A stretch of DNA of 50,744 nt from a virus. The notes under the pieces were generated by a model. The model searched no databases and was not told the DNA's origin. It saw only the letters and a program-made list of their open reading frames with translations. The stretch is from the IMG/VR virus record IMGVR_UViG_3300002091_000004. One strand, written 5' to 3'. Position 1 is the first letter of the stretch, and each line of letters begins with the position of its first letter. The position numbers and the translations under genes were made by a program. Shown piece by piece: positions 1 to 50,744 of the stretch.

Positions 1-466
1 GATAGACAGTCCAAGGAGCACGGATAGCAAGTTTCTTTACGCCAATCTTACCATCATTATATTTGCTGTTCTTTTTACTGGAACGAGCCTCACCACCACG
101 AACTTTATAGACAGTTTCAAACCATGAAAAACCATAAGTCAAGAAAGACAGGGCTTCTGCAATGTGGTCATCAAGGCTATGGTCCATGTCATCCAGAATG
201 GACTTCATAAAGTCAGCAGCATCTTGGGCAGCAGGAGAGTTATCAATAGGAACAACCTTAATTTCAACATCGCGAAGGGTTTGTTCAACTGCGTACATAA
301 CAGCACCAATAGTGGCATTATTGTCACGCATTTCACGATATTTTTGAATAGCCTTATTGCCACGAAGGTCAACAAGAAATTCATCAGCATAAGGCAAACC
401 TGAATAGGTATTCTGTCCAGAAACCCCAAGTTCAATTTTGCTGGCAGTTTCCGACAGCTTATTCAT
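1..466 (-). CDS. Portal protein, N-terminal fragment (copy of 46603..47068, cut by window start)
   Basis: Same sequence as the 5' part of the 45662..47068 ORF; start codon at 466. Confidence 0.7.
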   Translation of the reverse strand, partial: MNKLSETASKIELGVSGQNTYSGLPYADEFLVDLRGNKAIQKYREMRDNNATIGAVMYAVEQTLRDVEIKVVPIDNSPAAQDAADFMKSILDDMDHSLDDHIAEALSFLTYGFSWFETVYKVRGGEARSSKKNSKYNDGKIGVKKLAIRAPWTVY

Positions 467-474
467 TAGACTAC

Positions 475-1899
475 CTATTGATTTGAAGTTAGACCTTTTG
501 CATCTGAATAGGCCAAATTAAGTGTTGGTTTAGCAATACCTTTAAGGGCAAGGTCAGTCAATGCCCAAACTAGAGCATCAAGACGGTCAGGAGAACCAAT
601 AGAACCCAAAGGTTCCCATTGAACCATTTGATTTTCAAGTTCATCCAATCCCCTAGCATGTTTAACCTTGTGTCTTTCATACAAAGCCGATACTGGTTCA
701 GCACGGGCATACTTACCTTTAGAAGCATGGACCAAGCGAATAGGGATAGTCTCATTAACTGTTTGTAGAGTATGTCTAACCATATCCCCACCTTGATTTC
801 GTTCTGCTACAACACGATCCGCAGTATACTTAAAATAAAGGTCATTGGCTTTAGTAGCCCACTGTTCAGGAGAATATCTGTTTGTGGCATCTTCAAGGAC
901 ATAGCAAACACCATTAAGGTCTATACCTGCCACAACAATGCCAGTCATATCGCTTTCAGCATTAGCTGTAACCGCAGGGTCAATAGCCACAACAACTCTA
1001 GCAAGATTGTTAGCAAACTCTATAGGATCAGGAATATCCATCTCACAGGCTTCAAGAACATCTCTTGTCCACAAAGCACCAGAAGCTTCATCAAGGATTT
1101 CAGCATAAAGTTCTTGACGGCCAAGCCTCGTACCTTCATACAAGTTCTTCACTGTATCAAGATAAGGAGCCGCAAGATTAGCAGAGTTATCAAAAGTTGA
1201 ACCAAAGGTGACAACAGTTGTTTTACCTTTAATAATGTCTCGTACAAGCTTAGTAGGCTTAGGAGTTGTAGTGACACAAACTTGAGGATGCTTGCCAAGA
1301 CGAAGACAAAATTGGAGCATATCCCAAGTGTCTCTATCTCTATTCCAAGCAGCAAGTTCGTCACACCATGCACACTCAAACTGAGGTCCACGAAGACGTT
1401 CAGGTTCTTCAGCAGAGAAGAACTGTACTTGAGCACCATTCTCCCAAGTTAGTGTACGCTTAGTGGGAGACCATACAGGCATACCCATCTTAATACCACG
1501 ATCAGTCTTATCACCAGCCCAACAACGAGCAAGGAAACCAGACTCACCATTAATCATAACTCGTTCAATATCAGAGTTAGTAGCAGCGATAGCAGCAATA
1601 CGTTTTGCACCAGCTTTTACTTTTTCTCTGACCCACTCAACACCAGCACGGGTTTTACCAAAGCCACGACCAGCATTAATAAACCAAGTATTCCAAAGAC
1701 CTTCAGGAGCAAGTTGTGTAGGCCTTGCCCAAAAATGCCAGTTATAGATTAGGGACTTAGCCTTATCGGGATCAAGTTGAGCCAAAAGTTCAGCCACATC
1801 CTCACCCATGCCACGAAGATCATCAGCATGAAGTGCTAGACCATTCTTACCAGTGGGTTCGGGTTTAGGGGCTAACTTTTTGGTGACTCTCTTTACCAT
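475..1899 (-). CDS. terL: Terminase large subunit
   Basis: 474 aa; Walker A-like GRGFGKTR, Walker B-like WCDELAAW; directly upstream of portal gene. Confidence 0.9.
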   Translation of the reverse strand: MVKRVTKKLAPKPEPTGKNGLALHADDLRGMGEDVAELLAQLDPDKAKSLIYNWHFWARPTQLAPEGLWNTWFINAGRGFGKTRAGVEWVREKVKAGAKRIAAIAATNSDIERVMINGESGFLARCWAGDKTDRGIKMGMPVWSPTKRTLTWENGAQVQFFSAEEPERLRGPQFECAWCDELAAWNRDRDTWDMLQFCLRLGKHPQVCVTTTPKPTKLVRDIIKGKTTVVTFGSTFDNSANLAAPYLDTVKNLYEGTRLGRQELYAEILDEASGALWTRDVLEACEMDIPDPIEFANNLARVVVAIDPAVTANAESDMTGIVVAGIDLNGVCYVLEDATNRYSPEQWATKANDLYFKYTADRVVAERNQGGDMVRHTLQTVNETIPIRLVHASKGKYARAEPVSALYERHKVKHARGLDELENQMVQWEPLGSIGSPDRLDALVWALTDLALKGIAKPTLNLAYSDAKGLTSNQ

Positions 1900-2066
1900 T
1901 ATTTCTCAACTGGCTCATATGTGTGACTTTTGTTTCTGATCTTTATTAGAAACTCATCTGGTGGGCTGTAATGAACTAAGTCAAGTTTTCTGATATAGTA
2001 ACCAAACTCTTTTGCAAGGTCTGCAAGTTTTTGAGCCATATCTTCTGGCATTATTGTTGGTTTCAT
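1899..2066 (-). CDS. Hypothetical small protein (55 aa)
   Basis: Below ORF-track cutoff; ATG at 2066, TAA at 1899-1901; TAATG overlaps with both neighbours suggest translational coupling. Confidence 0.45.
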   Translation of the reverse strand: MKPTIMPEDMAQKLADLAKEFGYYIRKLDLVHYSPPDEFLIKIRNKSHTYEPVEK

Positions 2067-2449
2067 TACTCTTCTTTTTCTTTTTTCTTCTTACCTAGCA
2101 AAGCAAGAAGATCGTCAATAGCCCCATTATCAGAGGTTTCATCTTCAGGTTCAGCTTCAATAATGGTTTGAGTTGGCGACCAGCCAGCTTTAGAACGAAG
2201 CACAAGTTCAGCAGCTTTCCAATCACCACTTTTAGCAGCACTGATAACTACATTACCCATTTCTTCTTGTAGGTTAGCCCTAGCATCTGCAATATCAGCA
2301 CGATATGTCTTATACATACCATTCATAGAGGTAGGGGCATCTTTGAATTGTTGAATGTAATCTAGGATTACTCTCATAGCCACACCAGCGCCAATTTGAC
2401 GACGAATAGCTGTAGCAATTTCCATTTTATGTTTAAGTGCTTCAGCCAT
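2066..2449 (-). CDS. Putative terminase small subunit
   Basis: 127 aa from ATG 2449 preceded by AAGGAG; sits just upstream of terL; call by synteny only. Confidence 0.45.
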   Translation of the reverse strand: MAEALKHKMEIATAIRRQIGAGVAMRVILDYIQQFKDAPTSMNGMYKTYRADIADARANLQEEMGNVVISAAKSGDWKAAELVLRSKAGWSPTQTIIEAEPEDETSDNGAIDDLLALLGKKKKEKEE

Positions 2450-2509
2450 TTGTGGCTCCTTTAATGCGCATATAAGCCTTATATGGCTATCTAACTGCCA
2501 CAAAGTAAT

Positions 2510-2585
2510 TGGTGCCCCTGTTCAGAATCGAACTGATTTCCTCGCATTACAAAAGCGAACATCATCCAGTAAATGCTTCAAGGGC
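2510..2585 (-). tRNA. tRNA, anticodon probably UGU (Thr)
   Basis: 76 nt ending CCA; 7-bp acceptor stem GCCCUUG/CAGGGGC, GG in D-loop, T-arm with UUCGAUU loop; hand fold gives loop UU-UGU-AA closed by a U.U mismatch, so isotype is tentative. Confidence 0.6.
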
Positions 2586-2749
2586 CTAGCCTGATAAACA
2601 GGAAATAAGGAACCCTCCAGGGTGCGCCCAACCGATACTCAGTCTATTAATGGCGTGGAGGGTCTATAAACAAAAGGCTCAAACCTAGTTACGCTTCCAT
2701 GATACATGAGATTGTGGGGAAGATTTGTTGTTTTGCCTTTTGTTTATTA

Positions 2750-2778
2750 GATATAATGTTGGTGTTCTGAAAAGTCAA
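2750..2778 (-). promoter_or_regulatory. sigma70-like promoter upstream of tRNA and packaging genes
   Basis: On minus strand TTGACT - 17 nt - TATATC; short version of the repeated cassette. Confidence 0.5.
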
Positions 2779-2897
2779 GGGCAATAGTGATAAAAATATC
2801 ACATATTACGTATTTATTTTTCAAAACACCTAATTTTATCAGTTAAACCACAAAAATATAAAAGTTAACCACAAAAAGTTAACTGATATTTACATGA

Positions 2898-3419
2898 TTA
2901 GCTTCTAAAGTGCAAAGGCATAGTAGTATCCCATCTGTGGATGCTTTTATCCTTTTCCCACTCTCTACGTATAGCTACAGCCTCTTCATAGCTATTTGTT
3001 CTATATACTGCTTGGGTAGGACCCCTTCTAGCTACATAGTAGCCCATAGGCATAATTCTAGCCACACCCTCAACATCAGTCTCAACAGATTTAGGCTTAA
3101 CTACATGTCTGGCAGACAAAGCCTTCTCTGCTTTCTTAACCACAAGAAGATTAGAAAATTCAAAGTTAAGACAATCACCATCTTCAAACTTGATCACTTC
3201 ATCATCTTTAAGGAAGTAGTTCTTGTGAAGGATATATGCTACTCTTGCAGGCTGTAGAGCAATGACTTCATCACCTACCCTAACACCCAAGTACATCTTT
3301 CCACCCTTAGTAGAGTCAAGTAGTCTACCAGACTTCTTACTATAAAACCTACCTTGTTCGTGGTCATACTCAAACTTATTATTGAGTTCCTTGTAGGAGA
3401 ACCCTTTGTATCTTTCCAT
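2898..3419 (-). CDS. HNH_3/AP2-type homing-endonuclease-like DNA-binding protein, catalytic His apparently missing
   Basis: 173 aa; block IKFEDGDCLNFEFSNLLVV resembles the HNH_3 DHxDGNxxNNxxxNL block with F in place of H; C-terminal GYYVARRG..YRTNSYEEAVAIRREW resembles an AP2 domain (by eye). Confidence 0.55.
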   Translation of the reverse strand: MERYKGFSYKELNNKFEYDHEQGRFYSKKSGRLLDSTKGGKMYLGVRVGDEVIALQPARVAYILHKNYFLKDDEVIKFEDGDCLNFEFSNLLVVKKAEKALSARHVVKPKSVETDVEGVARIMPMGYYVARRGPTQAVYRTNSYEEAVAIRREWEKDKSIHRWDTTMPLHFRS

Positions 3420-3615
3420 TGGTACTCTATCCTAGACTGATTACTGATACTCTCTATATACAGATTCTGTACAGTTCTTCAAGTACTATCTTCTAATACT
3501 CTTTATCTCTATAGATAATCATATCCTTGTACGTACAGATATCCTTATACGTACTATCCTTTAAGTAATAGTCTATCTTAGATGGGGATATATTGGGGGG
3601 AACCAACCTTAAAGT

Positions 3616-3644
3616 AATATAGTGTTGGTGTTCTGTAGTGTCAA
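3616..3644 (-). promoter_or_regulatory. sigma70-like promoter upstream of the HNH/AP2 gene
   Basis: On minus strand TTGACA - 17 nt - TATATT, preceded by an A/T tract; core of cassette copy 3583..3670. Confidence 0.5.
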
Positions 3645-4377
3645 GGGGCATTTGTAAAAATATTTGTATATTTATCAAAAATCTTTTTTTTTGTGGAATT
3701 TAGGTCACGAAGGTAAGTCAAATACTTTTTCGTCAAGTCTAGAATGTCACGTTCTTTATGTCAAGGTAAGTATGTCATGTAAGCTTACTATATATAAGGG
3801 GGAGATATGTCACGGCTTGTTCTTTCTTAAAATTTTTCTTATAGATTTCAAGCTGTTACAAAAGTCAGAAATTTTTCTTTTGGATTTATATGGGCTAACC
3901 CACCCCAAACGAATCACCCCCCTATAATCCCAAGGGACCCTAGACTGCTCAGGCTAACGCCCTGCGCCTAGTCAATATCTAATCGTCACTGGTATCGAAA
4001 GAGTTAGACTAGTGTGGCAAATATGTCACTGTAATATAAATGTCACGGCTTCTAACTGTCATGGGATGGTCGGTTGATTTAACTTGACAGTGTGAAATTA
4101 GTAAATCTTTTCCGTAGGATAGCGATTCGGCTAACCCCCCCCCACCTTCAATCAAACTAACACTAGAACACATGCTAGCACTAAAACCCATGCCAGTTTA
4201 CATGCTAACACATTCGAATCCTTGCATATGATCTATCCTGGGTTAGCCTGGCCCGCCATGCTTTGCCACATGCAGAACAAGATAGGCACACAGTCCATAG
4301 GAAGGCCAAGGAAGGGGCAAGCTTGCTTTAGGTACACCTAGATATACCCTAGCAAGCTTGCCTCTCTGGCAGGCCTC

Positions 4378-21739: not shown

Positions 21740-21904
21740 ATGGCTGACATGGTTCAAATCTCGGTTAAAGAATATCTTTCCCTTAAAGATGATGCTAATT
21801 GGCGAAGGTGCCTTGAAGCTGGTGGGGTAACATCAGACTGGGAATGGTATAGTGAGGCGCTGGATGCAGGCGGCTATTATGAAGAAGAAGAGGACGAAGA
21901 ATGA
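21740..21904 (+). CDS. Hypothetical acidic protein (54 aa)
   Basis: Below cutoff; ATGA overlap with the nrdJ start. Confidence 0.4.
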   Translation: MADMVQISVKEYLSLKDDANWRRCLEAGGVTSDWEWYSEALDAGGYYEEEEDEE

Positions 21905-22870
21905 CTAATTACTTGCCTACAGACTATCAATCTTTTATTGCCACAAGCCGTTATGCACGATGGCTGGATGATGAAAATCGTCGTGAGAATTGGGGAGAGA
22001 CTGTTCAACGTTATATTGACAATCTTGTGGTACCTAAAGCTGATGCCCAAACCACAGAAGAGATTCGTGAAGCTATTCTTAGCCTTGAAGTAATGCCCTC
22101 TATGCGGGCTATGATGACCGCTGGACCTGCTCTACAACGTGATAATACTGCTGGCTATAACTGTGCTTACCTTGCTGTAGATGACCCTAAAGCCTTTGAT
22201 GAAGCTATGTTCATCCTTCTGTGTGGTACTGGTGTAGGGTTCTCTGTGGAACGTCAGTATATCAGTAAGCTGCCCGATGTACCGGATACTATGTTCCAAA
22301 GCGATGACACTATTATTGTAGCTGACAGTAAAGAGGGTTGGGCTAAGGCATTGCGTAAGCTGATTGCTTATCTGTATGCTGGTGAAATCCCTAAGTGGGA
22401 CGTGTCTAAGGTTCGTCCTGCTGGTGCAAAGCTTAAGACCTTTGGTGGTCGTGCTTCAGGTCCTGCACCTTTGATTGACTTGTTTAACTTTACCATCAAC
22501 ACTTTTGTTAACTCTAAAGGTCGTAAACTCTCTTCTATGGATTGCCACGACCTTATGTGCAAGATTGGTGAAGTTGTTGTGGTTGGTGGTGTTCGTCGTT
22601 CAGCTATGATTAGTCTTTCTAATCTGTCTGATGATCGTATGCGACATGCTAAGTCTGGACAGTGGTGGGAAAAGAATGCTCAACGTGCATTGGCTAACAA
22701 CTCAGTTGCTTATACTGAGCGGCCTGACATGGAAACTTTTCTTCGTGAGTGGACTTCTCTTGTTGAGTCTAAGTCTGGTGAACGAGGTATTTTCAGCCGT
22801 CCTGCGTCTAAAAAGCAAGCTGCAAAGAATGGCCGTCGCAACCCTGACTATGAATTTGGTACCAATCCGT
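21901..22870 (+). CDS. nrdJ: Class II (B12-dependent) ribonucleotide reductase, exon 1
   Basis: Ends ..EFGTNP + T; the unspliced frame hits TAA immediately; joins 23045 to give TNP-C-SEI. Confidence 0.85.
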
Positions 22871-23044
22871 AAGCGATAAATGTGCGGATTTAAAACTTCT
22901 CCTGATTGACTTGGAAGGCTGTAGCAAGCCGACAGGGCGCAAGCGTAATGGTAGCGTGAGAGACTAAGCGGAGAAGGCACTAAGACAGTGTATGCGATAG
23001 TCCAGCGCACAAGTGGGTATGCTAATGTAACCCCACAGTGTGAG
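22871..23044 (+). mobile_element. Group I intron 1 (ORF-less, 174 nt)
   Basis: 5' exon AATCCGU pairs with intron GCGGAUU (22884..22890) with U.G at the splice site; last intron base is G; R/S-like core GAGAGACUAAG (22958) and GCGAUAGUCCAG (22994). Confidence 0.8.
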
Positions 23045-23396
23045 GCAGTGAAATTATTCTAAGACCACAACAATTCTGTAATTTGACGGAATCTGTGATT
23101 AGGGCTACAGACACCCTTGATGACTTGATCCGTAAAGTTCGTATCGCAACTATCCTTGGCACTATTCAATCTACATATACTCACTTCCCTTATCTTCGTA
23201 AGTCTTGGAAAGACAATACTGAAGAAGAGCGGCTGTTGGGAGTTAGCTTGACTGGTATTATGGACAATACTCTAACTAACAATCCTTGGGAAAATCTGAA
23301 TGTTATCCTTGATCTTTTGAAGCAAGTTGCTATTGATACTAACAAAGAGTGGGCAGAAAAGCTTGGTATTAATGCTTCTGTGGCTATCACTTGCGT
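23045..23396 (+). CDS. nrdJ: Class II ribonucleotide reductase, exon 2
   Basis: (C)SEIILRPQQFCNLTE... to ...VAITCV; frame continuity with exons 1 and 3. Confidence 0.85.
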
Positions 23397-24171
23397 TGAC
23401 TAATTAGCGCCCTGTTGTGGTAACATAACAGTGAAAATCCTGTGAATTGCTGGAAACCCCTAACGTAAAGACGAGGGCAATCAGCAGCCAAGCCTTGAAA
23501 AAGGAAGGTTCAACGACTATCTACGAAGGTAGAGTAGGATCAAGTGATCCGAAGCGCAGGGCATCCTTATAGGATGATGATATAGTCTAGTCTCCTAAGA
23601 AACTAGGAGCAGTTTAGGTCTAAAAATGTACATAGTCTATAAAGCAACTTATAAAGATAAGTACTATATTGGTTTTACCAATGACTTGTCTAAAAGAATC
23701 TCTTCACACCAGTGTTCAATCAATTCTGGTAAGAAGAGTAAGTTTTATGATTATGCAAGAAAATACAACTTTGATAATTTTGTATTTTCTATAATTGGTG
23801 AGTTTGAAGATAAAGAATCTGCCTTTAGTTTTGAGATTGAGAACATAAAACTTTCTGACCCAAATTGCCTAAATTTGGCAAAAGGTGGTGAAGGTGGTTT
23901 TGTTATACCCGAATATTTACAAGATGGGTGGAAACAAAAACTAAAGGCTGCTAGACAAGGAAGAAAACCTGCCCAAGGTATGTCACACACAGAAGATAAT
24001 AAAAACCTCTTTAGTTTGTGTGGAAAAATTCGTTGGGATAAGTATGGTAGGTACCCAAGTGAAGTGATTTCTTTATCTTTCAAAGATGCTAAACAAAAGT
24101 ATGGCATAAGTAAAACTCATTACTATAGACTTAAACGGGCTGAGAATAACGAACTCAGTTGAATATAAACG
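23397..24171 (+). mobile_element. Group I intron 2 carrying a GIY-YIG endonuclease ORF (775 nt)
   Basis: 5' exon ends in U, intron ends in G; core GGUUCAACGACUAU (23507) and GAUGAUAUAGUC (23576); splicing restores ITCV-KPSGTVSQL; boundary ambiguous by 1 nt (repeated T). Confidence 0.8.
23626..24162 (+). CDS. GIY-YIG homing endonuclease (intron-encoded)
   Basis: YIVYKAT..YYIGFT..SKRISSH..FEIENI..LNLAKGG; stop lies 9 nt before the 3' splice site. Confidence 0.85.
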   Translation: MYIVYKATYKDKYYIGFTNDLSKRISSHQCSINSGKKSKFYDYARKYNFDNFVFSIIGEFEDKESAFSFEIENIKLSDPNCLNLAKGGEGGFVIPEYLQDGWKQKLKAARQGRKPAQGMSHTEDNKNLFSLCGKIRWDKYGRYPSEVISLSFKDAKQKYGISKTHYYRLKRAENNELS

Positions 24172-24751
24172 TAAACCCTCTGGCACAGTTTCCCAGTTGG
24201 TTGACAGTGCAAGTGGTATTCACGCTAGGCATAGTGAGTACTATATTCGTACTGTGCGTGGAGATAACAAGGACCCATTGACCCAGTTTATGAAGGATCA
24301 AGGTATCCCTAGTGAACCTGATGTTATGAAGCCTGAAAGCACTACTGTCTTTAGCTTTCCTATGAAGTCTCCCTCTGGTGCTATTACTCGTAATGATATG
24401 ACTGCCCTAGAGCAACTTGATCTGTGGTTGATCTATCAACGTCATTGGTGCGAACATAAGCCTTCAGTAACCATTACTGTTCGTGACCATGAATGGATGG
24501 AAGTTGGTGCTTGGGTCTATAAGTACTTTGATGAAGTGTCTGGTGTATCATTTTTGCCACACTCTGACCACTCTTATCAACAAGCACCTTACCAAGAGTG
24601 CTCTAAGCGTGAATACGAAGACGCTCTTGCCTTGATGCCGAAAAAGCTTGACTGGGCAAAGCTTTCAGAGTATGAAACTGAGGATACCTCGAAGGGAACT
24701 AGCACTTTTGCCTGCGTCGGAGGATCGTGTGAGGTTGTAGATTTGGTCTAA
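24172..24751 (+). CDS. nrdJ: Class II ribonucleotide reductase, exon 3
   Basis: Begins (V)KPSGTVSQL and ends with redox tail FACVGGSCEVVDLV; the three exons total 1902 nt = 633 aa. Confidence 0.85.
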
Positions 24752-25290
24752 TGAAGAAAGATTTAACAGGACAAACTTTTGGGGACCTCTACGTTGTAGG
24801 GGTCTCTGAAAAATCTAGAAATGGCCATTATAGGTATTCCGTAACCTGTGTTTGTGGGACTTCTAAAACTGTTTTAGGAACCCATTTAATTCAAGGTAAC
24901 ACTTCACACTGTGGTTGTAAAACTTTAAGAGTTAGTGCAAATTACCAAGGTTATAAGGGTGTTGGCAAAACTTATTGGAGTTCATTAAAACGGGGTGCTA
25001 ATGGTGAAAAAGGAAGAAAGTCTCTCGACTTTAATTTGACCATAGAGTATATTGGAGACCTGCTAGAGAGACAAGAATATAAGTGCAAACTTAGCGGCTT
25101 ACCGATAACTGCAAAAAGGGGAACTGCTTCTTTAGATAGGATTGATAGTGGTAAAGGTTATATTGAAGGTAATGTTCAATGGCTTCACAAAGATGTGAAC
25201 ATGATGAAAAGACATTATAACCAAGATTACTTCCTCTTTCTTTGTAAGAAAATTGCTGGGGGAAGCTGTGAAATCGTTGACCTGACCTGA
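24751..25290 (+). CDS. Free-standing HNH-family homing endonuclease
   Basis: N-terminal LTGQTFGDLYVVG..CVCG..SHCGC, C-terminal LDRIDSGKGYIEGNVQWLHKDVNMMK; TAATG overlap with the nrdJ stop; ends GGSCEIVDLT. Confidence 0.75.
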   Translation: MKKDLTGQTFGDLYVVGVSEKSRNGHYRYSVTCVCGTSKTVLGTHLIQGNTSHCGCKTLRVSANYQGYKGVGKTYWSSLKRGANGEKGRKSLDFNLTIEYIGDLLERQEYKCKLSGLPITAKRGTASLDRIDSGKGYIEGNVQWLHKDVNMMKRHYNQDYFLFLCKKIAGGSCEIVDLT

Positions 25291-25300
25291 TAGGAATAGA

Positions 25301-25570
25301 ATGTTCTATGTCTTGACCAAAGATGACTGCATTTGGTGTGATGCAGCTAAAGAACTCTTGAGCAAAACGGATACCCCTTTTGGGGTATTCGACTACCGTG
25401 ACCATCCTATGCTTGCTCTACTTATGAAGAAGGCAGGACTACGTACTGTACCACAGATTTGGGTTGACACTCCTGATGGAAGAGAGTATATAGGTGGTTA
25501 TGAAGACTTGATGAAATGGATTGCTACAAACAGTTTGACAAAACCTGTTACCTCAAGTGAATCGGAATAA
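25301..25570 (+). CDS. Glutaredoxin/NrdH-like redoxin
   Basis: 89 aa, N-terminal CIWC active-site motif, adjacent to the RNR gene. Confidence 0.7.
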   Translation: MFYVLTKDDCIWCDAAKELLSKTDTPFGVFDYRDHPMLALLMKKAGLRTVPQIWVDTPDGREYIGGYEDLMKWIATNSLTKPVTSSESE

Positions 25571-45661: not shown

Positions 45662-47068
45662 TTATTTGGTTTGATCAGTTACATCTTGAGCATCATTAGT
45701 AGCCTGTGCAGCAAGCATAGCTGCTTTATCTTCGGCTGCTTTTGCTTCTTTTTGGGTCTTTACGTAAAGATCTTTATCAAAAGGAAGTTCAGCAACATGA
45801 AGCAATTCAGCCACAGTATCGCCTTGATTAGAGATATCAATACTTGCACCATTAAGGTTGCGAAGGAATACTGCCAATTCACGAAGGTCGTGAGGAGCAA
45901 CATCACCAGCCACAAGCTTAGGCATAATGTCCCAAGAAAGACCATTCAGACGCCAAATGGACTCTACAAGTTGTTTGTTAAGCGTGTCTACAATGCTATT
46001 AATATAGCTTTCCATAGAACGAAGAAACAAGTCAGTTTTAGTTTTAGACAAAGCATACGAACCAGTAGCACCACCACCAAGCATCATAAACTCAGCCATA
46101 ACAGAACGAGCAATGTCATGCTGATAGCGTTGAATTACTGGATCAGTGTTAATAGCCCGAGTGCCATTAGCGGTAATGAGTTCAATATCCATAAGACGTT
46201 GATTGGTTGGTTTACCATCCACGTCCACATAAAGGTCAGAGGGAAGGAGCGCATAACCTTGTTCATTGTTTTTCAAATCTCGAAGGATGCGTTCAAATTG
46301 CTGACGCAGGGCTGCTTGGTCTACTGTGGCATCTGAACTAAGATACTCAGCAGGCATACGGCCAACAGGAACACCATGAAGTTCACGCTCAATAGCAATA
46401 GCTTCATAGCTTTGAATCCTATTCAGGTAGGTATAAGCCACATAGGCATTACGCAGAACAGAGCGTCCAGAAGGATCATTATTAAGGCTTGTGGTGCGAT
46501 AATAAATACTCTTTTCTACAGGAATGTAGATAGCTGGCTTACCCCATGTCACCATCTGGTGCATACCGAGAATTTCACTATTTTCGTGGTCAACCTCAAA
46601 AAGATAGACAGTCCAAGGAGCACGGATAGCAAGTTTCTTTACGCCAATCTTACCATCATTATATTTGCTGTTCTTTTTACTGGAACGAGCCTCACCACCA
46701 CGAACTTTATAGACAGTTTCAAACCATGAAAAACCATAAGTCAAGAAAGACAGGGCTTCTGCAATGTGGTCATCAAGGCTATGGTCCATGTCATCCAGAA
46801 TGGACTTCATAAAGTCAGCAGCATCTTGGGCAGCAGGAGAGTTATCAATAGGAACAACCTTAATTTCAACATCGCGAAGGGTTTGTTCAACTGCGTACAT
46901 AACAGCACCAATAGTGGCATTATTGTCACGCATTTCACGATATTTTTGAATAGCCTTATTGCCACGAAGGTCAACAAGAAATTCATCAGCATAAGGCAAA
47001 CCTGAATAGGTATTCTGTCCAGAAACCCCAAGTTCAATTTTGCTGGCAGTTTCCGACAGCTTATTCAT
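45662..47068 (-). CDS. Portal protein
   Basis: 468 aa, immediately downstream of terL. Confidence 0.8.
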   Translation of the reverse strand: MNKLSETASKIELGVSGQNTYSGLPYADEFLVDLRGNKAIQKYREMRDNNATIGAVMYAVEQTLRDVEIKVVPIDNSPAAQDAADFMKSILDDMDHSLDDHIAEALSFLTYGFSWFETVYKVRGGEARSSKKNSKYNDGKIGVKKLAIRAPWTVYLFEVDHENSEILGMHQMVTWGKPAIYIPVEKSIYYRTTSLNNDPSGRSVLRNAYVAYTYLNRIQSYEAIAIERELHGVPVGRMPAEYLSSDATVDQAALRQQFERILRDLKNNEQGYALLPSDLYVDVDGKPTNQRLMDIELITANGTRAINTDPVIQRYQHDIARSVMAEFMMLGGGATGSYALSKTKTDLFLRSMESYINSIVDTLNKQLVESIWRLNGLSWDIMPKLVAGDVAPHDLRELAVFLRNLNGASIDISNQGDTVAELLHVAELPFDKDLYVKTQKEAKAAEDKAAMLAAQATNDAQDVTDQTK

Positions 47069-47076
47069 TAGACTAC

Positions 47077-48501
47077 CTATTGATTTGAAGTTAGACCTTT
47101 TGCATCTGAATAGGCCAAATTAAGTGTTGGTTTAGCAATACCTTTAAGGGCAAGGTCAGTCAATGCCCAAACTAGAGCATCAAGACGGTCAGGAGAACCA
47201 ATAGAACCCAAAGGTTCCCATTGAACCATTTGATTTTCAAGTTCATCCAATCCCCTAGCATGTTTAACCTTGTGTCTTTCATACAAAGCCGATACTGGTT
47301 CAGCACGGGCATACTTACCTTTAGAAGCATGGACCAAGCGAATAGGGATAGTCTCATTAACTGTTTGTAGAGTATGTCTAACCATATCCCCACCTTGATT
47401 TCGTTCTGCTACAACACGATCCGCAGTATACTTAAAATAAAGGTCATTGGCTTTAGTAGCCCACTGTTCAGGAGAATATCTGTTTGTGGCATCTTCAAGG
47501 ACATAGCAAACACCATTAAGGTCTATACCTGCCACAACAATGCCAGTCATATCGCTTTCAGCATTAGCTGTAACCGCAGGGTCAATAGCCACAACAACTC
47601 TAGCAAGATTGTTAGCAAACTCTATAGGATCAGGAATATCCATCTCACAGGCTTCAAGAACATCTCTTGTCCACAAAGCACCAGAAGCTTCATCAAGGAT
47701 TTCAGCATAAAGTTCTTGACGGCCAAGCCTCGTACCTTCATACAAGTTCTTCACTGTATCAAGATAAGGAGCCGCAAGATTAGCAGAGTTATCAAAAGTT
47801 GAACCAAAGGTGACAACAGTTGTTTTACCTTTAATAATGTCTCGTACAAGCTTAGTAGGCTTAGGAGTTGTAGTGACACAAACTTGAGGATGCTTGCCAA
47901 GACGAAGACAAAATTGGAGCATATCCCAAGTGTCTCTATCTCTATTCCAAGCAGCAAGTTCGTCACACCATGCACACTCAAACTGAGGTCCACGAAGACG
48001 TTCAGGTTCTTCAGCAGAGAAGAACTGTACTTGAGCACCATTCTCCCAAGTTAGTGTACGCTTAGTGGGAGACCATACAGGCATACCCATCTTAATACCA
48101 CGATCAGTCTTATCACCAGCCCAACAACGAGCAAGGAAACCAGACTCACCATTAATCATAACTCGTTCAATATCAGAGTTAGTAGCAGCGATAGCAGCAA
48201 TACGTTTTGCACCAGCTTTTACTTTTTCTCTGACCCACTCAACACCAGCACGGGTTTTACCAAAGCCACGACCAGCATTAATAAACCAAGTATTCCAAAG
48301 ACCTTCAGGAGCAAGTTGTGTAGGCCTTGCCCAAAAATGCCAGTTATAGATTAGGGACTTAGCCTTATCGGGATCAAGTTGAGCCAAAAGTTCAGCCACA
48401 TCCTCACCCATGCCACGAAGATCATCAGCATGAAGTGCTAGACCATTCTTACCAGTGGGTTCGGGTTTAGGGGCTAACTTTTTGGTGACTCTCTTTACCA
48501 T
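47077..48501 (-). CDS. terL: Terminase large subunit (same locus as 475..1899)
   Basis: Identical peptide in the ORF track. Confidence 0.9.
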   Translation of the reverse strand: MVKRVTKKLAPKPEPTGKNGLALHADDLRGMGEDVAELLAQLDPDKAKSLIYNWHFWARPTQLAPEGLWNTWFINAGRGFGKTRAGVEWVREKVKAGAKRIAAIAATNSDIERVMINGESGFLARCWAGDKTDRGIKMGMPVWSPTKRTLTWENGAQVQFFSAEEPERLRGPQFECAWCDELAAWNRDRDTWDMLQFCLRLGKHPQVCVTTTPKPTKLVRDIIKGKTTVVTFGSTFDNSANLAAPYLDTVKNLYEGTRLGRQELYAEILDEASGALWTRDVLEACEMDIPDPIEFANNLARVVVAIDPAVTANAESDMTGIVVAGIDLNGVCYVLEDATNRYSPEQWATKANDLYFKYTADRVVAERNQGGDMVRHTLQTVNETIPIRLVHASKGKYARAEPVSALYERHKVKHARGLDELENQMVQWEPLGSIGSPDRLDALVWALTDLALKGIAKPTLNLAYSDAKGLTSNQ

Positions 48502-48668
48502 TATTTCTCAACTGGCTCATATGTGTGACTTTTGTTTCTGATCTTTATTAGAAACTCATCTGGTGGGCTGTAATGAACTAAGTCAAGTTTTCTGATATAG
48601 TAACCAAACTCTTTTGCAAGGTCTGCAAGTTTTTGAGCCATATCTTCTGGCATTATTGTTGGTTTCAT
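48501..48668 (-). CDS. Hypothetical small protein (same locus as 1899..2066)
   Basis: Duplicate by +46,602 offset. Confidence 0.45.
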   Translation of the reverse strand: MKPTIMPEDMAQKLADLAKEFGYYIRKLDLVHYSPPDEFLIKIRNKSHTYEPVEK

Positions 48669-49051
48669 TACTCTTCTTTTTCTTTTTTCTTCTTACCTAG
48701 CAAAGCAAGAAGATCGTCAATAGCCCCATTATCAGAGGTTTCATCTTCAGGTTCAGCTTCAATAATGGTTTGAGTTGGCGACCAGCCAGCTTTAGAACGA
48801 AGCACAAGTTCAGCAGCTTTCCAATCACCACTTTTAGCAGCACTGATAACTACATTACCCATTTCTTCTTGTAGGTTAGCCCTAGCATCTGCAATATCAG
48901 CACGATATGTCTTATACATACCATTCATAGAGGTAGGGGCATCTTTGAATTGTTGAATGTAATCTAGGATTACTCTCATAGCCACACCAGCGCCAATTTG
49001 ACGACGAATAGCTGTAGCAATTTCCATTTTATGTTTAAGTGCTTCAGCCAT
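48668..49051 (-). CDS. Putative terminase small subunit (same locus as 2066..2449)
   Basis: Duplicate by +46,602 offset. Confidence 0.45.
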   Translation of the reverse strand: MAEALKHKMEIATAIRRQIGAGVAMRVILDYIQQFKDAPTSMNGMYKTYRADIADARANLQEEMGNVVISAAKSGDWKAAELVLRSKAGWSPTQTIIEAEPEDETSDNGAIDDLLALLGKKKKEKEE

Positions 49052-49111
49052 TTGTGGCTCCTTTAATGCGCATATAAGCCTTATATGGCTATCTAACTGC
49101 CACAAAGTAAT

Positions 49112-49187
49112 TGGTGCCCCTGTTCAGAATCGAACTGATTTCCTCGCATTACAAAAGCGAACATCATCCAGTAAATGCTTCAAGGGC
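49112..49187 (-). tRNA. tRNA, probably Thr(UGU) (same locus as 2510..2585)
   Basis: Duplicate by +46,602 offset. Confidence 0.6.
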
Positions 49188-49351
49188 CTAGCCTGATAAA
49201 CAGGAAATAAGGAACCCTCCAGGGTGCGCCCAACCGATACTCAGTCTATTAATGGCGTGGAGGGTCTATAAACAAAAGGCTCAAACCTAGTTACGCTTCC
49301 ATGATACATGAGATTGTGGGGAAGATTTGTTGTTTTGCCTTTTGTTTATTA

Positions 49352-49380
49352 GATATAATGTTGGTGTTCTGAAAAGTCAA
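49352..49380 (-). promoter_or_regulatory. sigma70-like promoter (same locus as 2750..2778)
   Basis: Duplicate by +46,602 offset. Confidence 0.5.
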
Positions 49381-49499
49381 GGGCAATAGTGATAAAAATA
49401 TCACATATTACGTATTTATTTTTCAAAACACCTAATTTTATCAGTTAAACCACAAAAATATAAAAGTTAACCACAAAAAGTTAACTGATATTTACATGA

Positions 49500-50021
49500 T
49501 TAGCTTCTAAAGTGCAAAGGCATAGTAGTATCCCATCTGTGGATGCTTTTATCCTTTTCCCACTCTCTACGTATAGCTACAGCCTCTTCATAGCTATTTG
49601 TTCTATATACTGCTTGGGTAGGACCCCTTCTAGCTACATAGTAGCCCATAGGCATAATTCTAGCCACACCCTCAACATCAGTCTCAACAGATTTAGGCTT
49701 AACTACATGTCTGGCAGACAAAGCCTTCTCTGCTTTCTTAACCACAAGAAGATTAGAAAATTCAAAGTTAAGACAATCACCATCTTCAAACTTGATCACT
49801 TCATCATCTTTAAGGAAGTAGTTCTTGTGAAGGATATATGCTACTCTTGCAGGCTGTAGAGCAATGACTTCATCACCTACCCTAACACCCAAGTACATCT
49901 TTCCACCCTTAGTAGAGTCAAGTAGTCTACCAGACTTCTTACTATAAAACCTACCTTGTTCGTGGTCATACTCAAACTTATTATTGAGTTCCTTGTAGGA
50001 GAACCCTTTGTATCTTTCCAT
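49500..50021 (-). CDS. HNH_3/AP2-type protein (same locus as 2898..3419)
   Basis: Identical peptide in the ORF track. Confidence 0.55.
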   Translation of the reverse strand: MERYKGFSYKELNNKFEYDHEQGRFYSKKSGRLLDSTKGGKMYLGVRVGDEVIALQPARVAYILHKNYFLKDDEVIKFEDGDCLNFEFSNLLVVKKAEKALSARHVVKPKSVETDVEGVARIMPMGYYVARRGPTQAVYRTNSYEEAVAIRREWEKDKSIHRWDTTMPLHFRS

Positions 50022-50217
50022 TGGTACTCTATCCTAGACTGATTACTGATACTCTCTATATACAGATTCTGTACAGTTCTTCAAGTACTATCTTCTAATA
50101 CTCTTTATCTCTATAGATAATCATATCCTTGTACGTACAGATATCCTTATACGTACTATCCTTTAAGTAATAGTCTATCTTAGATGGGGATATATTGGGG
50201 GGAACCAACCTTAAAGT

Positions 50218-50246
50218 AATATAGTGTTGGTGTTCTGTAGTGTCAA
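50218..50246 (-). promoter_or_regulatory. sigma70-like promoter (same locus as 3616..3644)
   Basis: Duplicate by +46,602 offset. Confidence 0.5.
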
Positions 50247-50744
50247 GGGGCATTTGTAAAAATATTTGTATATTTATCAAAAATCTTTTTTTTTGTGGAA
50301 TTTAGGTCACGAAGGTAAGTCAAATACTTTTTCGTCAAGTCTAGAATGTCACGTTCTTTATGTCAAGGTAAGTATGTCATGTAAGCTTACTATATATAAG
50401 GGGGAGATATGTCACGGCTTGTTCTTTCTTAAAATTTTTCTTATAGATTTCAAGCTGTTACAAAAGTCAGAAATTTTTCTTTTGGATTTATATGGGCTAA
50501 CCCACCCCAAACGAATCACCCCCCTATAATCCCAAGGGACCCTAGACTGCTCAGGCTAACGCCCTGCGCCTAGTCAATATCTAATCGTCACTGGTATCGA
50601 AAGAGTTAGACTAGTGTGGCAAATATGTCACTGTAATATAAATGTCACGGCTTCTAACTGTCATGGGATGGTCGGTTGATTTAACTTGACAGTGTGAAAT
50701 TAGTAAATCTTTTCCGTAGGATAGCGATTCGGCTAACCCCCCCC

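Follow-up and report, generated by a model that had tools for sequence, protein, structure and literature searches.

A putative free-standing homing endonuclease cassette within the 3' coding end of a marine phage nrdJ gene and the duplicated redox tail that accompanies it

In this report we describe an element located at the 3' end of the nrdJ gene in the virus record IMGVR_UViG_3300002091_000004 of IMG/VR (the whole analysed stretch of 50,744 nucleotides (nt) is called the window), which is the genome of an HMO-2011-type marine podophage. The nrdJ product is a monomeric, RTPR-type class II (adenosylcobalamin) ribonucleotide reductase (RNR). The best explanation of its 3' end, to which we assign a probability of about 0.8, is a free-standing homing endonuclease cassette inside the coding sequence, comprising a replacement tail for NrdJ, a DNA-binding domain, a nuclease and the displaced native tail. 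The replacement tail (T1, VGGSCEVVDLV with TAA, 24716..24751, plus strand) is the functional NrdJ C-terminus in the window, the body of the endonuclease gene (residues 1-169) occupies 24751..25257 on the same strand, and the displaced native tail (T2, GGSCEIVDLT with the native TGA, 25258..25290, plus strand) is now the C-terminus of the nuclease. A sequence-only reading of this DNA had proposed that the cassette inserted just upstream of the nrdJ stop and brought a synonymous replacement tail. Insertion within the nrdJ 3' end is upheld; the insertion point, however, is 24715/24716, directly after the first Cys codon of the CxxxxC redox pair. T1 does replace the nrdJ end, but it is not strictly synonymous (E-V-V-D-L-V versus E-I-V-D-L-T).

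The open reading frame (ORF) of nrdJ exon 3 ends in TFACVGGSCEVVDLV, with GGSCEVVDLV at 24719..24748 and TAA at 24749..24751. The next ORF, of 179 codons, starts with the ATG at 24751 within an overlapping TAATG and ends in LCKKIAGGSCEIVDLT (also written LFLCKKIAGGSCEIVDLT), with GGSCEIVDLT at 25258..25287 and TGA at 25288..25290. Recounting the two ends gave 8 of 10 identical residues and 18 of 30 identical nucleotides, the same figures as in the sequence-only reading. This similarity is not due to chance. All 278 six-frame ORFs with 60 or more amino acids (aa) were compared pairwise over their ten final residues (38,503 pairs); ORFs inside an exact 4,142-nt terminal duplication aside, a single pair, that of T1 and T2, had at least 7 identities, the next best having 6. 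In about 150 relatives the NrdJ C-terminus is strongly conserved as AC-x4-CE[IV]VD[LI]x before the stop. The C-terminal Cys pair (C731/C736) of the Lactobacillus leichmannii RTPR re-reduces the active site and shuttles reducing equivalents.

Relatives free of the nuclease indicate which of the two tails is native. Ranked by similarity of nrdJ exon 3, the top 80 viral contigs are all nuclease-free except L010, with this nuclease, and L013, with a second family described below. The closest nuclease-free ones (L004, L007 and L009) end in FACVGGSCEIVDLT, protein-identical to T2 and not to T1. Over 33 nt, T2 (25258..25290) matched the 10 closest nuclease-free relatives of the same tail length at least as well as T1 (24719..24751) in 10/10 comparisons and better in 8/10, the mean identities being ~23.8/33 and ~20.7/33, respectively. 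For the closest relative overall (L170, 90% aa identity, from a metagenome scan) the values were 26/33 and 21/33. Nuclease-free relatives thus do not favour T1, which differs from their tails at nearly each codon beyond the second Cys. As no relative is closer than ~80% in DNA, the polarity signal of the window is modest when taken alone. The flanks agree with this polarity. To the left, the resident part of exon 3 up to the first redox Cys codon (24172..24715, plus strand; TGC at 24713..24715), the putative left homology flank, shares 83-90% aa identity with nuclease-free relatives. To the right, the resident glutaredoxin gene (grx, 25301..25570, plus strand; Pfam Glutaredoxin, 8e-09) begins 10 nt after T2, and in nuclease-free relatives grx follows or overlaps the nrdJ stop directly (overlap through TAATG in L170 and TGATG in L007, separation by 12 nt in L006), so the native tail-to-grx junction is preserved. 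The earlier claim that the original tail was left fused in frame to the endonuclease is in accordance with both observations, T2 being like nuclease-free tails and followed by grx.

The same polarity was found at other occupied loci. Four residues separate the redox cysteines (Cx4C) in 76/77 non-redundant nuclease-free alleles, and three (Cx3C, as CVGSC or CVGNC) in 11/16 occupied versus 1/77 empty non-redundant alleles (Fisher p=2e-9); other occupied T1 tails have unusual residues (CDMVDLV, CDLVDLI, CELVDI). T2, in turn, is canonical and tracks the backbone: it reads SGD[SA]CEIVDLT where empty relatives read ACSGDSCEIVDLT, and GGSCEIVDLT in backbones reading ACVGGSCEIVDLT. The backbone-specific ending GGVCEIVDING of L164 is also present in the nuclease-free L016, and T2 of L087 ends in DLN, the same as in its 94%-nt neighbour L006. 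Compared with the nearest empty backbone, T2 had higher nucleotide identity than T1 in 9/11 non-redundant loci (0.89 versus 0.53 in L096, 0.86 versus 0.58 in L099). The most telling case for polarity is the pair L092/L095, where NrdJ is window-like (86-89% aa identity, versus 73-76%) and the nucleases group with those of L094, L096 and L098, which have SGDSC backbones, at 74-76%, their identity to the nucleases of the window and L084 being 65-70%. In both loci T1 is of the CVG[SN]C (Cx3C) type of the nuclease clade, and T2 is of the GGSC type of their own backbone. Together with the Cx3C bias and the backbone-specific T2 endings, this mixture argues that T1 travels with the nuclease and that T2 belongs to the recipient. 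Two broader tests gave p=0.03 each. When T1 and T2 were compared with all nuclease-free tails by mean identity, 11/13 favoured T2, in a set of which one member, L105, is a false tail call. For distant lineages, most members of which are tail-less, nrdJ and nuclease tails were aligned from their ends and their identity tested by permutation, with a result that was only weakly significant.

Possible signs of horizontal movement are the mismatch between nuclease clade and backbone in L092/L095 and a drop in identity close to the insert. Between L095 (occupied) and L011 (empty), most of exon 3 shows 92-98% identity, which declines to 82% and then 71% over the final ~135 nt of nrdJ and looks like a co-conversion tract. 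T1 and T2 of one locus share 52-76% DNA identity, random native tail pairs averaging 72%, and such low values would fit selection against cleavage or against repeat-mediated loss. The non-synonymous variety of T1 exceeds that of native tails (2.12 versus 1.37 codon differences per pair). As a separate observation, L011 (~3511..3552) is the only nuclease-free allele with a cassette-type Cx3C tail, FACVGSCEIVDLT before the stop. We considered this tail (VGSCEIVDLT) as a scar of nuclease loss by recombination between T1 and T2, and the protein, with a T1 front and a T2 back, fits; the nucleotide evidence is too weak and this explanation was not adopted.

A database search with the nuclease gave 1,003 matches at E<=0.001, and among the best 120 of these a tail of the form CExVD[LIV].. 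stands at the C-terminus in 68. In ~70/80 viral contigs fetched by profile, the nuclease homologue lies directly 3' of nrdJ, with a gap of -3 to ~+100 nt, and this adjacency holds even where nrdJ identity to the window is 25-35% and nuclease identity 40-50%. Three proteins traced in Logan and ENA assemblies have the same nrdJ context. The site is seldom occupied. Of the 80 nearest nrdJ loci from viruses, one has this nuclease and one that of the second family; from metagenomes, this nuclease is present in 2 of the nearest 80 and the other sites are empty. The site is likewise empty in the cultured HMO-2011-type phages CRP-207, HMO-2011 and CRP-1. No close homologue of the nuclease was found in deposited phage genomes (best 39.5%). 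The presence/absence polymorphism thus concerns one precise site, the insert always being at the nrdJ tail. Nuclease genes without the tail also occur beside nrdJ, and no T2 remnant was seen behind them, which indicates that the tail-less forms are not simple nonsense or frameshift derivatives. Two further observations concern the arrangement at individual loci. In L137 two different nuclease homologues stand in tandem after one nrdJ (2501..3109 and 3453..4058). The nucleases of L106 and L107 and the proteins P0084 and P0092 end in FLCK[RK]IVDLT, with the second Cys and Glu missing and the fusion further in; the fusion point thus varies among lineages, and the Cys-to-Cys distance across the family ranges from 3 to 9 residues.

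The same site is also occupied by a nuclease of a second family. In L013 the ORF after nrdJ (3248..3730; T1 there is FACVGSCEIVDIA) encodes a protein whose similarity to the window nuclease is confined to the N-terminal zinc-finger domain (38% over 72 aa, E 2e-10). In its C-terminal half it has a MUG113/T5orf172 domain, which belongs to the GIY-YIG superfamily, and it ends in GEWYHWEKVCEIVDLT. Among full-length homologues of this second family (proteins P0121-P0142), 17/21 carry the tail [VA]CEIVD followed by LT, VGG, IGA or V, variants which are all known in native nrdJ tails. Three homologues examined in long contigs (L250, L251 and L252; ~2501..2950) all overlap the nrdJ stop, and T1 of L250 is exactly that of the HNH-bearing L092, FACVGSCEVVDLV. 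Compared with the HNH family, the fusion here occurs closer to the second Cys. The presence of the same resident-type tail on two unrelated nuclease domains at the same site rules out a family motif. These findings point to a modular cassette, which would consist of a replacement tail, a CapR-like targeting domain, an interchangeable nuclease and the resident tail. In general terms, earlier work (PMC10448857) has described how CapR-type domains are combined as modules with nucleases of the T5orf172 and HNH kinds and how they cluster near RNR genes.

The window nuclease contains an N-terminal CapR-like Cys zinc-finger DNA-binding domain at about residues 3-62. The Pfam CapR match in the window protein is weak (residues 11-57), and 24 of 40 homologues match, with a best value of 8.5e-06. 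It is followed at about residues 89-169 by a nuclease core of the HNH/EndoVII superfamily with the motif SLDRID..GN.QW.HKD.N, which appears in the family alignment as the invariant SLDRID..GY..GN.QW.HKD.N. PHROG profiles matched at 1e-16 to 1e-20 overall (HNH endonuclease 6e-19, endonuclease VII 1e-16, endonuclease 5e-20), all stopping by residue 169, i.e. before T2. Searches of the window protein against NCBIfam gave no match, and a PDB sequence search gave nothing meaningful. An AlphaFold 2 (AF2) model built from 40 homologues had a predicted local distance difference test score (pLDDT) of 89, with a beta-beta-alpha unit at 126-153 and the last helix at 158-172; the nine C-terminal residues, belonging to T2, were floppy (pLDDT 56). 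The best fold matches in the PDB are HNH domains (Cas9 HNH, PacI, Gme HNH, T4 endonuclease VII), with weak E values of 0.02-0.3 and probabilities of 0.95-0.97, and many BFVD matches at 1e-7 to 1e-11 are named HNH endonuclease. The label of HNH endonuclease given by the sequence-only reading is therefore backed by PHROG profiles and fold matches, but not by Pfam. Residues D129, R130, N141, H146, D148 and N150 are invariant across the 40 homologues, and this conservation argues for a function; nuclease activity of the window protein is plausible. The region from LDRID to N150 is encoded at 25132..25203 of the window (nuclease residues 128-151), and the Asp-Arg of LDRID is invariant in the whole nuclease family. 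By our hand alignment to HNH_3/I-HmuI-type motifs, DRID (Asp-Arg) presumably occupies the usual His-His position. The protein may use either a different general base or be an atypical enzyme, e.g. a nickase.

Within the cassette explanation, we infer nuclease activity, a cleavage site, immunity of the occupied allele and translational coupling as follows. The mobile unit would be a replacement of the last 11 NrdJ codons with its own stop (T1) together with the nuclease gene coupled through TAATG. With no stop of its own and inserted after the first Cys codon, the nuclease gene would have its ORF ended by the resident T2 and the resident stop, and the downstream grx would keep its original upstream context. 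In a mixed infection the nuclease would cut a nuclease-free nrdJ in or beside the conserved tail-coding DNA, and the break would be repaired from the occupied allele, with the nrdJ body as left homology and T2 and the region beyond it as right homology. The occupied allele would escape cutting because the insert splits the site and T1 is recoded or shortened, and NrdJ would stay functional because T1 keeps both cysteines.

Several observations weigh against this explanation. Nucleotide discrimination between the two tails in the window is modest (~3/33 positions), and when L004, which one measure ranks as the nearest backbone, is taken as reference, T1 and T2 are equally close to it between the two cysteines. 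Viral and metagenome contigs contained no near-identical empty-site allele (best 90% aa), and hence the cassette boundaries in the window are not fixed to the nucleotide. The comparison loci all come from metagenomic assemblies. Nuclease and nrdJ backbone distances correlate (rho 0.68), so much of the cassette history may be vertical. No Pfam HNH model matches the window nuclease or the 40 homologues, and R130, which our hand alignment to HNH motifs puts at the usual general-base His, is invariant, so activity or mechanism could be atypical. Finally, the description of T2 as left behind may be incomplete, because in four independent pairs of occupied loci its codon changes were 23 synonymous versus 3 non-synonymous (271 versus 97 in the nuclease body), a pattern that a dead relic would not keep for long.

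The last point leads to the alternative that survives best, namely that T2, although derived from nrdJ, is at present maintained by selection as a working part of the element, either a portable right homology arm or a peptide with a role on the nuclease, e.g. in docking to NrdJ or to the glutaredoxin/thioredoxin serving the RNR tail. Evidence on the relic question is mixed. The retention of T2 in frame in over half of the best HNH homologues and in most of the MUG113-type ones, as counted above, speaks for selection, as does the synonymous excess. With a diversity of 0.56 at third and 0.10 at first and second codon positions, T2 is as constrained as functional native tails. The tail-coding DNA of nrdJ is moreover the last conserved island, with pairwise identity of 0.72 collapsing to 0.28 just past the stop, and the genes downstream of occupied sites differ among contigs, from which the homology-arm reading gains some support. 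Conversely, the persistence of tail-less nucleases at the nrdJ site means that T2 is dispensable for some members, the backbone-following variants are equally explained by re-derivation of T2 from each invaded allele, which would also mimic purifying selection, T2 is predicted to be disordered in the AF2 model, and only one Cys of the redox pair is kept, at a different spacing. Re-derivation per invaded allele, a selected right-hand arm and a useful peptide all fit the T2 data. We consider selection on T2 rather unlikely, and it refines rather than replaces the cassette explanation.

The tail-nuclease-tail structure is formally symmetrical, hence T1 could instead be the original nrdJ tail, with the nuclease having arrived after the stop together with a foreign tail copy, T2. 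The inter-Cys codons of the window T1 (GTC GGA GGA TCG), about as close to L004 as those of T2, and members that are plain intergenic inserts with an unaltered native-type tail, e.g. L105, are compatible with such reverse polarity. It is already disfavoured, and we regard it as very improbable, since T2 is the better match in the window comparisons and across loci given above, T2 endings are backbone-specific, the Cx3C type of T1 is clade-specific and nearly absent from empty alleles, the T1 stop overlaps the nuclease start so that the two are physically one unit, and the junction between T2 and grx is the native one.

Since over half of the close homologues carry the tail, it could also be an intrinsic C-terminal motif of the nuclease family, resembling RNR tails by convergence or through an ancient shared module. 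This view can be given hardly any credence and is effectively refuted by the distribution of the tail. The 71 homologues in bacterial and archaeal genomes (27-57% identity), 69 of which lie away from any detectable nrdJ and 2 of which adjoin it, carry the tail in 0/71 cases, and the few distant viral homologues that adjoin other genes (DnaE-like, another RNR type and others) are tail-less. The sequence-only reading would have been undermined by a tail conserved in this HNH family at loci unrelated to RNR, and its absence from other viral and cellular loci ties it to the nrdJ site and not to the nuclease fold. The tail is also found on the unrelated nuclease domain at this site, is not covered by the PHROG family profiles and varies in parallel with the local nrdJ tail, both copies ending in CEII in L158 and in CEVK in L128.

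In a splicing reading, the nuclease ORF would belong to a group I intron, or be an intein, and nrdJ would truly end in T2 as its last exon or extein. The one certain and one probable intron upstream in the same gene might suggest this, but it is scarcely credible, as no Rfam intron signal at E<=0.1 was present in 24700-25300 and no Pfam intein (Hint) domain was found, T1 is a complete two-Cys tail with its own stop overlapped by the nuclease start, and T2 alone lacks the first Cys context unless spliced exactly after the codon ending at 24715, making T1 pointless. With neither intron nor Hint domain and a start codon of its own overlapping the T1 stop, the nuclease gene is free-standing, as the cassette explanation holds.

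The sequence-only reading had compared the arrangement to free-standing homing endonuclease genes of organelles that duplicate the 3' end of their host gene, and this likeness was borne out. The atp6 gene of Allomyces macrogynus, in work by Paquin et al. from 1994, is reportedly such a case, termed mORF gene hybrid. Hybrids of the same architecture in atp6, atp9, cox2 and nad3 of Glomus were described by Beaudet et al. 2013, who also summarise the Allomyces atp6 case (PMC3630166). Each consists of an inserted C-terminus, an endonuclease ORF and the native C*-terminus. As in the phage locus, a conserved gene has received a free-standing endonuclease ORF near its 3' coding end and with it a foreign C-terminus in frame, its own C*-terminus staying downstream; the native copy is closer to relatives (91% versus 63.5% nucleotide identity there, PMC3630166; compare L096 above), and the two copies are similar in protein and diverged in DNA. 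The phage case differs in that its host is a bacteriophage and not an organelle, the swapped piece comprises only ~11 codons, the nucleases are of the HNH superfamily or MUG113/T5orf172 with a CapR-like zinc finger instead of LAGLIDADG or GIY-YIG, and translation of the endonuclease begins at a start codon of its own and continues through the native tail.

A second comparison is offered by the WHO elements of Torulaspora, which replace the 3' half of FBA1 and form a category apart from introns and inteins (Osborne, Monnin & Wolfe, bioRxiv 10.64898/2026.08.13.744650). They too are neither intron nor intein and join an endonuclease gene to an alternative 3' part of an essential host gene, which is replaced and not disrupted. 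In both systems the target in the host gene diversifies, here as non-synonymous variety and altered Cys spacing of T1, and nuclease genes occur in tandem downstream of the host gene (clusters after FBA1 there, L137 here). In contrast to the phage elements, the WHO nucleases are of the LAGLIDADG type and contain a zinc finger, half of FBA1 is exchanged, and the displaced fragments stay separate from the nuclease; experiments have demonstrated cleavage and an arms race there, and both are proposed here. The window nuclease, of the HNH superfamily, and its MUG113/T5orf172 sister are neither LAGLIDADG/GIY-YIG nor eukaryotic, so the phage element works like the mORF and WHO elements and is a member of neither named family.

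Among phages, free-standing endonucleases of T-even phages and cyanophages include SegF and SegG, which perform intronless homing, MobE, located between or within nrd genes, and F-CphI beside psbA. Like the element described here, these enzymes are phage-borne, promoterless or coupled, located beside or within conserved essential genes, notably RNR genes, and spread by break repair with co-conversion of the flanks. Theirs is, unlike here, an intergenic position, or else the host gene is split into two polypeptides (Aeh1 nrdA). We know of no phage endonuclease gene that brings a new end for its host gene and has the displaced end as part of its own product. In our literature search, most subscription papers being outside its reach, no earlier description of such a tail swap in phages was found. 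Free-standing endonuclease genes are well documented beside and inside the nrd genes of phages (PMC3653736), and CapR-type zinc fingers joined to T5orf172 or HNH modules are a further shared trait (PMC10448857).

The arrangement appears to be common in uncultured marine and other phages, given the 68 tailed proteins among the best 120 of 1,003 matches, two nuclease families and many nrdJ lineages. It extends end-replacement homing of essential genes, so far seen in fungal mitochondria and recently in yeast nuclei, to bacteriophages. A bolder possibility, which we put forward tentatively and rate below even odds, is that phages host their own tail-swap class of homing elements equivalent to WHO, in which T2 is selected as homology arm or peptide, nuclease modules are exchanged behind a common CapR-like domain, and T1 tails such as Cx3C and CDMVDLV are products of an arms race. 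If so, the T2 arm would let one cassette invade any nrdJ whatever lies downstream, and the arms race would reshape the redox-active end of an essential enzyme. For practical purposes, annotators will read the recoded tail as ordinary variation and the nuclease C-terminus as nuclease, and where nrdJ 3' ends serve as virioplankton markers, they include foreign stretches that may be under positive selection. The Cx3C and Cx4C tails found in nature are a variant set for redox-tail tolerance of class II RNR, and the compact 179-aa nuclease, with a putative coding target of 20-30 bp, could be characterised as a new site-specific enzyme.

The assignment of the window rests on the gene order nrdJ, MazG, endonuclease I, glutaredoxin and PhoH, which is the same in the window, in Roseobacter phages CRP-207 and CRP-1 and in Puniceispirillum phage HMO-2011. 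The terminal 4,142 nt are duplicated exactly (1..4142 = 46603..50744), which gives a unit genome of 46,602 bp and reflects either a circular assembly wrapped round or a long terminal repeat. The nrdJ gene, on the plus strand with all its inserts, is encoded in three exons totalling 1,899 nt or 633 codons (632 aa in CRP-207 NrdJ), and its splice junctions were deduced from the CRP-207 protein. Exon 1 (21901..22870; ORF list, Pfam and tblastn with CRP-207 NrdJ) contains RNR-II_ins_dom (Pfam, 1e-10) and ends in EFGTNP plus the T of the catalytic Cys codon. A 174-nt intervening sequence with in-frame stops (22871..23044) interrupts this TNP|C codon, and exon 2 (23045..23396; placed by comparison with the CRP-207 protein and the exon sum) resumes with GC AGT GAA, i.e. 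(C)SEIIL. The entire exon 3, with T1 included, spans 24172..24751, and its TIGR02505 RTPR match (1e-20) extends to profile position 722/724. Between exons 2 and 3 lies a group I intron (23397..24171; Rfam Intron_gpI at 23387..23609, 114.6 bits, E 4e-30) with a GIY-YIG endonuclease ORF (23626..24162; Pfam, 8e-12). The 174-nt insert matched no Rfam family even in a 241-nt search at E<=10. It has a P1-like pairing AAUCCGU/GCGGAUU, the last letter of the upstream exon is T and that of the insert is G, and it is probably a very small ORF-less group I-like intron. With the group I intron and the downstream nuclease, the window nrdJ would hold three separate selfish inserts. The same arrangement of group I intron, GIY-YIG ORF and downstream nuclease was also observed in L168.

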